64,000 nt of DNA from Catajapyx aquilonaris (lineage: Eukaryota), in assembly GCA_000934665.2 (NCBI GenBank), contig KZ538205.1:1-64000 (forward strand), given 5' to 3'. How positions within the stretch are numbered: the stretch's first letter is position 1; the number at the start of each line of letters is the position of its first letter. Made by a program: the position numbers and the translations under genes. Below the pieces are notes generated by a model. That model was not told the origin of the DNA. It saw only the letters and a program-made list of their open reading frames with translations, and did not search any database. Of this stretch, positions 17,082 to 20,000 are shown piece after piece.

Positions 17082-20000
17082 ATGAGCAGTCCAGGGTCGT
17101 GCGACACTTTTGTGGTACTTCCACCTGCAACACATGGAGGAAGTGTGGTGTTTGGGAAGAACTCTGACCGGCCGGCTGAGGAGGTGCAGGAAGTCATCTA
17201 CCAACCAGCGCAGGATTACCAGGACGGCGACAAGTTGCAGGTGACGGGCCAGTTGTAATAATAACAACAACAACAACAACAACAACAATAACAATGAATT
17301 TGTGTCCCCAGTGCACCTATATTGAAATCCCACAAACTGCTCACACTTTTGCGGTGATCCTGAGCAAGCCTTCATGGATGTGGGGAGCAGAGATAGGGGC
17401 CAATGAGCATGGCGTTTGCATTGGGAATGAGGCTGTATGGACAGTGTTAAATGGACCTGATGATGAAACTGAGAGGCTGCTTGGGATGGATCTTGTCAGG
17501 TTTGTAGAGTGGCATAGGCTGACAATTGAAGATGTCACTTGCCAAATGGGTCAAGTCCCAAATTTCGAAAAACCTTTTCATTGTGAATTACTAATTCGGG
17601 CCTCGCAGCCCTGGTGAAGATGAAGGGCCTAAGTCAACCAGAATGGCCTTAAAATTTAATCATAAACTGCGAAACTCCATATGGAGCAATGGAGCAGTTT
17701 TTTGTCACTCGGGAAAACTTTGCACCTCATGGACTTGGGCCCTTTGGCAAGTGACATCTTCAATTATTTATCAGGAATGGTTTTCATCATGGAAAAAAGT
17801 AGCCAAGCTTATAAATTCTGGTACTTTGGACTACAGTTTATAAGAGTTATCATAACCTGGTGCAATATCTAAAATGGTTTACAGTTTAAGGCTTAGTAAA
17901 ATGGTTTATTTCAGGCTTGGATTGGAACGTGGTGAGAGTGCAAGGAAGGCAGTGGATGTGATAACCCAGCTGCTGGAGGCACATGGGCAAGGAGGCCCCT
18001 GCTCCGACACCATTGCGTCATTCACCTACCACAACTCTTTTATTGTTGCTGACCCCAACGAAGCCTGGATCCTTGAGACTGCTGGAAGTCACTGGGCTGC
18101 AGAACATGTCACAAGTAGGGTCACTTGACATACCTGAATCTACGTATGTACAGTGTTGGACATTAATCGCGAGGCATATTGCCAGCGACATTTTCCGAAG
18201 CGGCAGAAGAAGGAATCGAAGATAAGGGTACTGCAAACCAGGAGAGCAAGATTCCTTCTTGTACTGCTTCGGAAAATGTTGCTGGCAGACTTGCCTCGAT
18301 TTATGACCAACACTGTACATGGGACCAAGAGCTATTATTAGCTCTTGATGGGACTAATTGTTCAATGCCAGCAAGACTCAGCTTTTGTCACCATACAGGG
18401 CAGTGCTTGAATTGTAATTTTTGAATTGAGGGTATCAGTGCGTGAAATTATGTAACTTTCTGCATTTTAGTGAAAATGATAATTTAGTGGGTACTTCACC
18501 TGAAAAAAGTCCATAATCCAGGTTTACCTATACAGGTGTTTAGACCTTTTCATTACATATGTCCTGTGGCTAAGCATGCATCCTACTTCCTTATCGATGT
18601 GGCGTGATGTAATGCATGAATCTTGATTTTATCAACCTGTGACAGGATGCAGTAGATGGAAAGAATGTCATTCTTGGTCTCAAGTTTTTATTAAAAATTC
18701 TATAAAAACCTACCCTTTTGCAAGTAAGAAGGTGGCAGCTCTTGACTCAACAGCTGAAATTGTTTCAGGTGGGTGTCGAAACATCTCAAATCAGCTATCA
18801 ATTGGGACCAAGATAGACCTTATGTCGGCTGGTTTGAAAGATCATGCTCAAAAAGAAGGTTACTGGGATGGACAGGTGAGTTCATGTCATGCTGCATGAT
18901 GCAGTGGAAATTAATCCCGATCGTTGCTTTAGGGTGAATTTAGTTTCTGTGCTGCTTATGGAGAAGCAAGTGTAGATGCTAATGAACGGGAGAAATGTGG
19001 AAGAAAGCTGCTGGCGAAATTTGCTGCTGGAGGTGACTTATTACTTTTTCTTTTACATGCACATGAGATGTGACTGTTCCTTTGTAGCCCATTATTTAAG
19101 GCCCTATGGCTTTAAAGGTTTAAGAAACAAGTTTTTGCCTCAATCTTGGTTTGTTCACAGGTGACTTCAACTTATGCCACATGTTTAAAGTTTTGCGTGA
19201 TGAGTCTAGTGGTATATGTATGAGAGATGGTGGGTTTGTTTCCACATCATCACAGGTACCACTCAGATTTTATTTGATCTTAGGAACTTCTGCAGGTGAT
19301 GCATGAAGTGGCATTTGCAACCTATTTAGTTTACCTTCCAAGACGAAAATCTCCAACGTACCTTCAAAAGTAGGATTTACTGAATATTTTAGTTATGGAA
19401 GTTCAGAATAATTACATTATTGAGATGTATGTTGACTGGGCATATGTGATCTGTTTTAAAACTTATGATTAGAATACCAGGAATTTACTGCCTCTTTAAA
19501 TTGTGAAGGGCTGCAGTCAGTGCGTATATTTGTTTTGTTACAAAAATATTGAGCCATATTTCATCTGATTTCCTCAGGTGATTTCAGGACTTCTGATATG
19601 TTTGCCATCTTGCGTGACAAAGAAAGTGGAATTTGCCGTGGCTTAGATCACAAAAGGCCTACTGCTGGAAGCCAGGTGGGTGGGCCTTCAAAAGTGGAAA
19701 TTTAATTTTGTTTATGAAGAATATTATTGGTGTTTTGAAAATACTTCTTGCTGTTGTCTTGAAGATTTCAGTGTAGTGTTGCAATTGGCACTGAGACTGT
19801 GCATGGCTTTTGGGTACCAGAATGTTGTTGTTCCATATCTAGATGCTCTATGAATGCCTTTTGATTTAATTTCAGGTGTCAGTATTAAGACGTGATGAAA
19901 AACCAAGTTGCCATTGGTTCACTGGTACCCCTGATCCACAAATGTCTGTCTTCAAACCATTCATCTTTTGTCCTGGAGTCAGAATTTCGCCACACATACA

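Follow-up and report, generated by a model that had tools for sequence, protein, structure and literature searches.

The window, i.e. the whole 64,000-nucleotide stretch of Catajapyx aquilonaris DNA analysed here (contig KZ538205.1), carries on its + strand a secernin gene, secernins being the best named homologues of the product. A 5' untranslated exon (16775..16905), recognised from a piece and a GT..AG joint of a spliced contig of run X1, is followed by the first coding exon (17052..17240, gene model and run X1 contig), in which the ATG at 17082 opens a short leader before Cys7-Asp-Thr in the spliced model. This N-terminal motif and a KNSDR motif in the same exon are conserved columns in relatives. 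Constitutive coding exons come next at 17312..17499 (gene model, run X1 contig and own-genome protein search), 17915..18114 (run X1 contig), 18769..18875 (gene model and run X1 contig) and 18933..19032 (model, contig and profile alignment). The peptide of 17915..18114 alone, among nine exon peptides, passes the Pfam cut-off for PF03577 (Peptidase_C69; 30.5 bits against 23), and exon 18933..19032 holds a conserved Arg that aligns to Arg224 of the L. salivarius bile salt hydrolase (lsBSH). Two alternative exons lie downstream of the latter, then another constitutive exon (19876..20037; gene model, run X1 contig and own-genome search) and the last exon (20648..21600; model and contig), where the stop codon ends near 20875. 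The 3' UTR is long: it runs from 20876 beyond 21600, the transcript contig extending about 1.4 kb past that point. The intron after 18114 contains a palindromic, MITE-like repeat of about 172 bp (18146-18320). All 40 scored places among 1422 own-genome candidates match it, most at 86-90% and on both strands, and its contig depth in run X1 is high.

Exon A (19161..19255, 95 nt) encodes residues 252-283, with an ancestral-type loop C-M-x4-F-V-S-T; it is part of the gene model, is spliced in run X1 and has counterparts in A-type isoforms elsewhere. Exon B (19578..19675, 98 nt) encodes residues 252-284, with a derived loop C-R-x3-H-x-R-P-T, and is defined by the gene model and by homology to B exons elsewhere. 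Both have an AG acceptor and a GT donor (GTACCA for A, GTGGGT for B); in either exon the entry phase is 1 and the exit phase 0. The earlier note, which had described two homologous exons with these positions, lengths, splice sites and phases, is confirmed, and its translations match. The two peptides are 47% identical. They match each other in the window by tblastn (E 7e-6 to 8e-6), the next match of either one being at E 0.19 or worse, and the same program found no second copy of the seven other coding exons in the 64-kb window (best other match E 0.027). A protein search of the animal's own genome gave seven matches, every one at this locus; by this search Catajapyx has one secernin gene. 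The core of the two exons is identical and invariant, the helix half also differs between them, and the Cys of the loop is conserved in at least 90%. Exon B of the window shares 70-73% identity with its counterparts in Penaeus, Palaemon and Amblyomma. Homologous, neighbouring, of equal phases and locked by the frame, A and B are hence a tandem duplicated pair.

Splicing in silico with the seven constitutive coding exons gives a protein of 412 aa with A alone and of 413 aa with B alone. When A and B are both included, translation stops after 305 aa (window 19644), 191 nt before the last junction; when both are skipped, it stops after 257 aa (window 19893), 142 nt before that junction. The statement that exactly one exon must be used is supported, the reading frame making double inclusion and double skipping unproductive. 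Under NMD rules, stops placed 191 and 142 nt before the last junction are expected to lead to decay. Decay of such transcripts is described as a recognised contributor to exclusivity (PMC6071210).

Mechanisms acting on the choice itself were sought in the introns. Steric exclusion of A and B is unlikely, the intron between them measuring 322 nt; a branch-like motif lies 13 nt before the exon B acceptor. Ten pairs of regions were tried for base pairing, and the best is a candidate stem with its 5' arm at 19290..19325 and its 3' arm at 19772..19812 (+ strand; duplex of -33.2 kcal/mol). None of 150 shuffles reaches its window-scan value of -30.5, and it is present in the MFE fold and in the centroid fold. 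Pairing in the other nine is no better than in shuffles, nor does the whole region fold better than shuffles (z -0.29). The candidate stem would loop out exon B and perhaps favour A. It resembles the docking-site/selector pairing of insect MXE clusters (PMC6071210), in that an intron-intron stem could loop out one exon, and differs from it in that only one stem was found, the one competing selector candidate (-17.4 kcal/mol) being diffuse and not convincing. An 11-nt word common to the introns after A and after B was marginal (81 of 2000 shuffles) and was not counted; with its possible partner it pairs at no better than about -9 kcal/mol.

Expression was read from a single run (X1), which bears no RNA label and consists of contigs only. 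It proved spliced: a 3505-nt contig with GT..AG joints runs along the secernin gene and links 19032 with 19161 and 19255 with 19876. Form A thus exists as a transcript, in which exon B is skipped. Of the four junctions that the earlier note had named for a check, the two of exon A are therefore present in RNA, whereas exon B is without cover in this one run of assembled contigs, and contigs drop rare forms. We nevertheless think it quite probable that B is used in Catajapyx.

Relatives were collected with searches using one exon, a region and an alignment of relatives, together with one profile search; protein clusters were opened for 30 proteins only, and the A and B labels are our own, assigned from similarity. 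As the earlier note had suggested, the exon pair was sought in other arthropods, and both types are found in 18 of the 92 entries tabulated (91 named species plus the window). Only A appears in 14 and only B in 53, many of these rows being one cluster representative that does not show loss, and the script left the remaining 7 entries, the window among them, unparsed or untyped. Searching by region with a B-type loop gave only 8 proteins among 12 candidates, too narrow a sample to bound the range of B. Both types belong to one gene in 16 of the 18 entries (ticks, malacostracans, an ostracod and thrips) and to two separate genes in the other two, the horseshoe crabs Limulus and Tachypleus. RefSeq holds one-gene isoform sets with both types for 12 species: the crustaceans Oratosquilla, two Macrobrachium, Palaemon, Panulirus, two Penaeus and Hyalella, and further Amblyomma, Ixodes, Ornithodoros and Frankliniella occidentalis. 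One locus tag or merged model carries both types in Cherax, Rhipicephalus, Notodromas and Frankliniella fusca.

In all 10 same-gene comparisons of A and B isoforms (7 species), the 17-22 differing positions fall inside the exon span; three further rows, which were not same-gene A/B pairs or had incomplete sequences, were excluded. Single-gene isoform pairs of ticks and crustaceans thus differ only over the exon, which upholds both mutual exclusivity and conservation. A Penaeus cluster holds Logan contigs of both types. The order is A then B in 3/3 merged gene models, as it is in the window. These three predicted models contain both exons with filler between them, and we read this as a prediction artefact. 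The earlier note had named a dead duplicate as the outcome that would overturn its proposal; at the level of the phylum this fails, both types being annotated in other arthropods. We hold with high confidence that the exon pair is real, ancient and conserved. Loops of mixed character were also seen in P0372 and P0071: Megalurothrips has a B-like start followed by an A-like Phe-Val, and Clastoptera an A-like start at B length, a possible sign of conversion between twin exons. Planthopper secernins (P0409 and P0423, from Laodelphax and Nilaparvata) have no N-terminal Cys-Asp-Thr and may be catalytically dead.

One column of the loop, the residue before Val in A or before Pro in B, separates the two types. 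It is Phe in 30 of 32 A exons, and Arg, His or Asn in 17/17 B exons paired with A in one gene, window included, as well as in 4 further B exons of decapods and ticks. In the separate B genes of horseshoe crabs it is Tyr. Where no A was seen in the lineage, the B exon carries Phe or Tyr in 42 of 44 cases (spiders, acariform mites, Polyneoptera, beetles, Lepidoptera, barnacles, a centipede and an isopod), a count from which Hemiptera were left out as ambiguous and one false second Periplaneta match was dropped. Among thrips, Megalurothrips is an exception in having Phe. The isopod exons have ends like those of malacostracan B exons, yet Phe in this column, as would be expected had Phe come back once A was lost. 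The whole pattern is a correlation over about eight lineages.

For the age of the duplication, we compared A and B exons between species. In 78/78 chelicerate-by-other species pairs, A-A plus B-B similarity exceeds the A-B similarity within species; these quartets are not independent and depend on our A/B labels. They favour one old duplication. In a tree of the 33 exon columns, a branch (91/76, and 93% of bootstrap trees) sets the 19 paired B exons apart from all others. The A exons do not group together, being interspersed with molluscs, an annelid and nematodes. Contrary to species relationships, single B-like exons lie outside the branch of the paired B exons. A-like loops occur in molluscs, Owenia, hemichordates, amphioxus, nematodes and vertebrate secernin-3; these loops and the position in the tree indicate that A is ancestral in type and B derived. 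The protist loop reads Cys-Met-His, and the bacterial loop is longer. Many bacterial relatives (P0211-P0312) have Cys-x-His in this longer version, hinting at a functional role of the loop Cys that both exons have retained. The comparisons argue strongly for one duplication before the split of chelicerates and mandibulates, which lies more than 500 million years back; after the duplication A would have kept the ancestral loop while B diverged. Just as strongly, they argue that later lineages retained the pair, retained a single copy, or distributed the two copies over separate genes.

The Catajapyx gene falls within the arthropod branch with the exon columns removed (100/98); its place among arthropods is not settled by the tree. 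With the same columns removed, the A genes of horseshoe crabs group with A-type genes of scorpions (P0021/P0139 versus P0017/P0044; 100/98). A duplication confined to horseshoe crabs would unite both of their genes in one clade, and the AU test speaks modestly against this (p 0.036). This suggests that an old chelicerate gene duplication split the isoforms, or else convergence, and a duplication shared by horseshoe crabs and scorpions, possible on this grouping, would bear on the place of Xiphosura. The two Tachypleus genes sit on contigs of equal size, which gives no reason to assume a whole-genome duplication. Having an A gene and a B gene, horseshoe crabs appear to fit the idea, put forward in the earlier note for vertebrates, that paralogues elsewhere do what one gene does here. 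For vertebrates themselves the analogy is not supported, since the loops of named secernin-3 proteins and of unnamed relatives branching with them are all short and A-like, without Pro-Thr. The note had also likened exon A to vertebrate SCRN2; the SCRN2-like loop that it gives does exist, in protein P0238, but P0238 itself carries no SCRN2 name.

The place of the exon in the protein was studied on AlphaFold models of the A and B isoforms of Palaemon, a shrimp orthologue (mean pLDDT 94). The model has the alpha-beta-beta-alpha fold of Ntn hydrolases (BSH/PVA-like), with the Cys at the start of strand 1. It matches the C69 dipeptidase 5iau (Z 32) and lsBSH (Z 20.1), and its Cys falls on the N-terminal Cys of both 5iau and the bile salt hydrolases. 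An N-terminal Cys (CDT) and an Ntn fold had been stated beforehand, and both hold, the former as Cys7 of the spliced model and the latter through the Palaemon orthologue. A PDB sequence search with the full isoform returned nothing at E 0.01, and a PDB profile search found the C69 dipeptidase only, in an alignment ending before the exon. In the models, a helix (257-264) is followed by a loop and by a strand starting at 278 in A versus 281 in B; the exon is thus predicted to encode a helix, a loop and half a strand. The residues that diverge most between A and B lie in the exposed loop.

In lsBSH, Loop 4 (257-268) lines the active site; according to the same article, Gln257Ala keeps 14-25% of activity on glyco-conjugates but 93-98% on tauro-conjugates, and a water bridge links Glu270 to Cys2, Glu270Ala alone changing activity little (PMC6711994). 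We aligned a profile of 257 secernin-family rows to one of 12 BSH-family rows with hhalign. Lys29, Asp32 and Arg238 are paired with Arg16, Asp19 and Arg224 of lsBSH; the exon loop is laid on Loop 4 and the Phe column on Glu270, though only at a lowered threshold and with low column confidence. The secernin-BSH match as such is not significant (probability 1.9%, E 0.025), and runs with one BSH sequence (25 columns aligned) and in global mode were uninformative. A coupling analysis of 383 sequences (effective number 250) recovers the hairpins of the model, its signal being partly phylogenetic. Among about 49,000 pairs, F13-M260, which couples the exon to the Cys strand, ranks 47, and S31-T281, which couples it to the KNSD strand, ranks 88. 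Profile alignment and coevolution agree on a position for the exon that we infer to be that of the active-site Loop 4 of BSH. The loop is likely to lie at the rim of the pocket, with the Cys presumably near. The proposal that splicing swaps a specificity loop thus gains from the weak alignment to Loop 4 and from the coupling to the Cys and KNSD strands, and stays at the level of analogy and inference.

We propose that one secernin gene, encoding a C69-family enzyme of Ntn fold, carries a tandem-duplicated exon of which one copy would be used at a time. The exon would supply the helix, the loop and the strand start that flank the pocket of the N-terminal Cys, at the place of Loop 4/Glu270 in bile salt hydrolase. 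Passing from A to B would replace Met/Phe-Val by Arg/His/(Arg,His)-Pro and, through a shorter strand, lengthen the loop. The swap may thereby change the leaving group or ligand that the pocket accepts, with the catalytic core unchanged. Exclusivity would come from the frame at least, and perhaps from a bias to A through the intron-intron stem around B. That the splice choice switches the rim of a substrate pocket, is of Cambrian age and changes what the enzyme accepts is the reading we moderately favour.

A swap at this place could instead alter maturation or chemistry, one isoform processing its N-terminus and turning the Cys into a glyoxylyl electrophile, as in human SCRN2/3, and the other being a Cys hydrolase or inactive. 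A glyoxylyl group formed from the Cys is reported on SCRN2 and SCRN3 and not on SCRN1 (bioRxiv 2023.02.02.526866), and in lsBSH a water bridge connects the N-terminal amine with the residue laid on the Phe column (PMC6711994); the strand start of the exon, which covaries with the KNSD strand, and the conserved loop Cys would also suit such a role. However, the invariant core is the same in both exons, and lineages with B only (spiders, most sampled insects) presumably retain an active enzyme, so that we regard a change of maturation as unlikely. The divergence of the exposed loop and of the helix half might, alternatively, concern a surface for oligomer assembly, localisation or a partner protein rather than the pocket, all the more since human tandem-exon regions are described as overlapping ligand-binding residues less than expected (PMC9741552). 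This is harder to reconcile with the placement at Loop 4 and the coupling to active-site strands, and a residue that is either aromatic or basic, as in the Phe column, would suit the pocket; a surface role appears to us decidedly unlikely.

Two further alternatives bear on the reality of the pair in Catajapyx and on its age. Exon B could be a silent or decaying duplicate in this animal: the sole run has a contig skipping B and zero cover on it, and the candidate stem could hide it. Yet B is open with intact splice sites, it is closer to the B exons of shrimps and a tick (70-73%) than to its own twin (47%), and the loss of rare forms from contigs would leave the same picture; a silent B is highly improbable. 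The pair might also have arisen repeatedly, in ticks, crustaceans and thrips, with convergent B loops, or B might predate arthropods. The alignment is short and the bootstrap unsettled, convergent tandem duplications are said to be common (PMC9741552), and Cys-Arg loops that fall near B with weak support occur in two annelids, Ridgeia and Lamellibrachia, and in a nemertean, Tubulanus. These worm loops are nevertheless without Pro-Thr and their clusters hold one loop type only, while repeated origins have to face the same exon boundaries, the A-B order in the 3/3 merged models and in the window, and the 78/78 quartets. We consider a repeated or older origin very doubtful. A bolder extension of the pocket-rim switch is tentative at best. 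Since the Cambrian, a single splice choice would have let arthropods draw two kinds of chemistry, or two classes of substrate, from one active site; a glyoxylyl electrophile as against a Cys hydrolase would be one example, a neutral as against an acidic leaving group another. The aromatic residue in A would be indispensable to an ancestral reaction, and lineages that lost A would repeatedly have regained it in B. A gene duplication in chelicerates, predating the split of horseshoe crabs and scorpions, would have shared out both jobs between two genes.

Tandem duplicated exclusive exons beside an active site are described for human KHK (ketohexokinase A/C) and CAMK2D (PMC9741552). The secernin pair shares with these the use of one gene with two homologous exclusive exons, the preserved catalytic residues and the ancient origin; it differs in protein family, in being an arthropod event and in its putative function, and whereas the swapped region lies beside the ligand site in KHK and CAMK2D, its place at the secernin pocket is the one proposed above. 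In CACNA1F/CACNA1S and in relatives of FYN, tandem exons became subfunctionalised after gene duplication (PMC9741552). Horseshoe crabs, with an A gene and a B gene where ticks hold both exons in one, resemble these cases, except that their exon split is known from proteins and not from DNA, and that the A-only gene groups with scorpion genes. The likeness to 5iau, from Lactobacillus farciminis, and to the L. salivarius BSH (5hke, 5y7p) lies in the fold and in the order Arg, helix, helix, loop, strand, and loop 257-268 is reported to tune glycine versus taurine there (PMC6711994); these bacterial enzymes have no splicing and 10-18% identity, with a weak residue mapping. Human SCRN1/2/3 belong to the same family, with an N-terminal Cys-Asp-Thr and A-like loops, but there are three human genes versus one in Catajapyx, and no B-type loop occurs among the sequences seen. 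Human SCRN2 and SCRN3 are reported to carry a Cys-derived N-terminal glyoxylyl and to have no known function, and the same two sources give no known secernin substrate (bioRxiv 2023.02.02.526866, PMC9285064).

We found no published report of the secernin exon pair in the literature searched, though supplementary MXE catalogues could list it, and secernin/SCRN is absent from the main text of the tandem-exon article PMC9741552; A and B isoforms are already present in automatic annotations. The kind of event is thus known and the gene new, with a putative function. Secernins are conserved from bacteria to people, and two human members bear an unexplained glyoxylyl group and are drug off-targets. 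Natural isoforms differing in about 17 residues at the probable rim of the pocket, kept for more than 500 million years, are a ready-made controlled experiment, and comparing A with B could reveal which molecules the pocket recognises and how conversion of the Cys is governed. One gene also displays, across a phylum, all fates of a duplicated exon: both copies kept, one lost, a split between paralogues, and apparent reversion after loss.

Elsewhere in the window, citrate synthase exons (Pfam) lie on the - strand at 8859-12239, divergent from the secernin gene, and an NAD_binding_2 exon at 3989-4489. A secretin-family GPCR exon is found on the - strand at 39972-40328. An intronless open frame of 690 codons (57732-59804, + strand) has ligand-gated ion channel domains and looks like a divergent ionotropic receptor.
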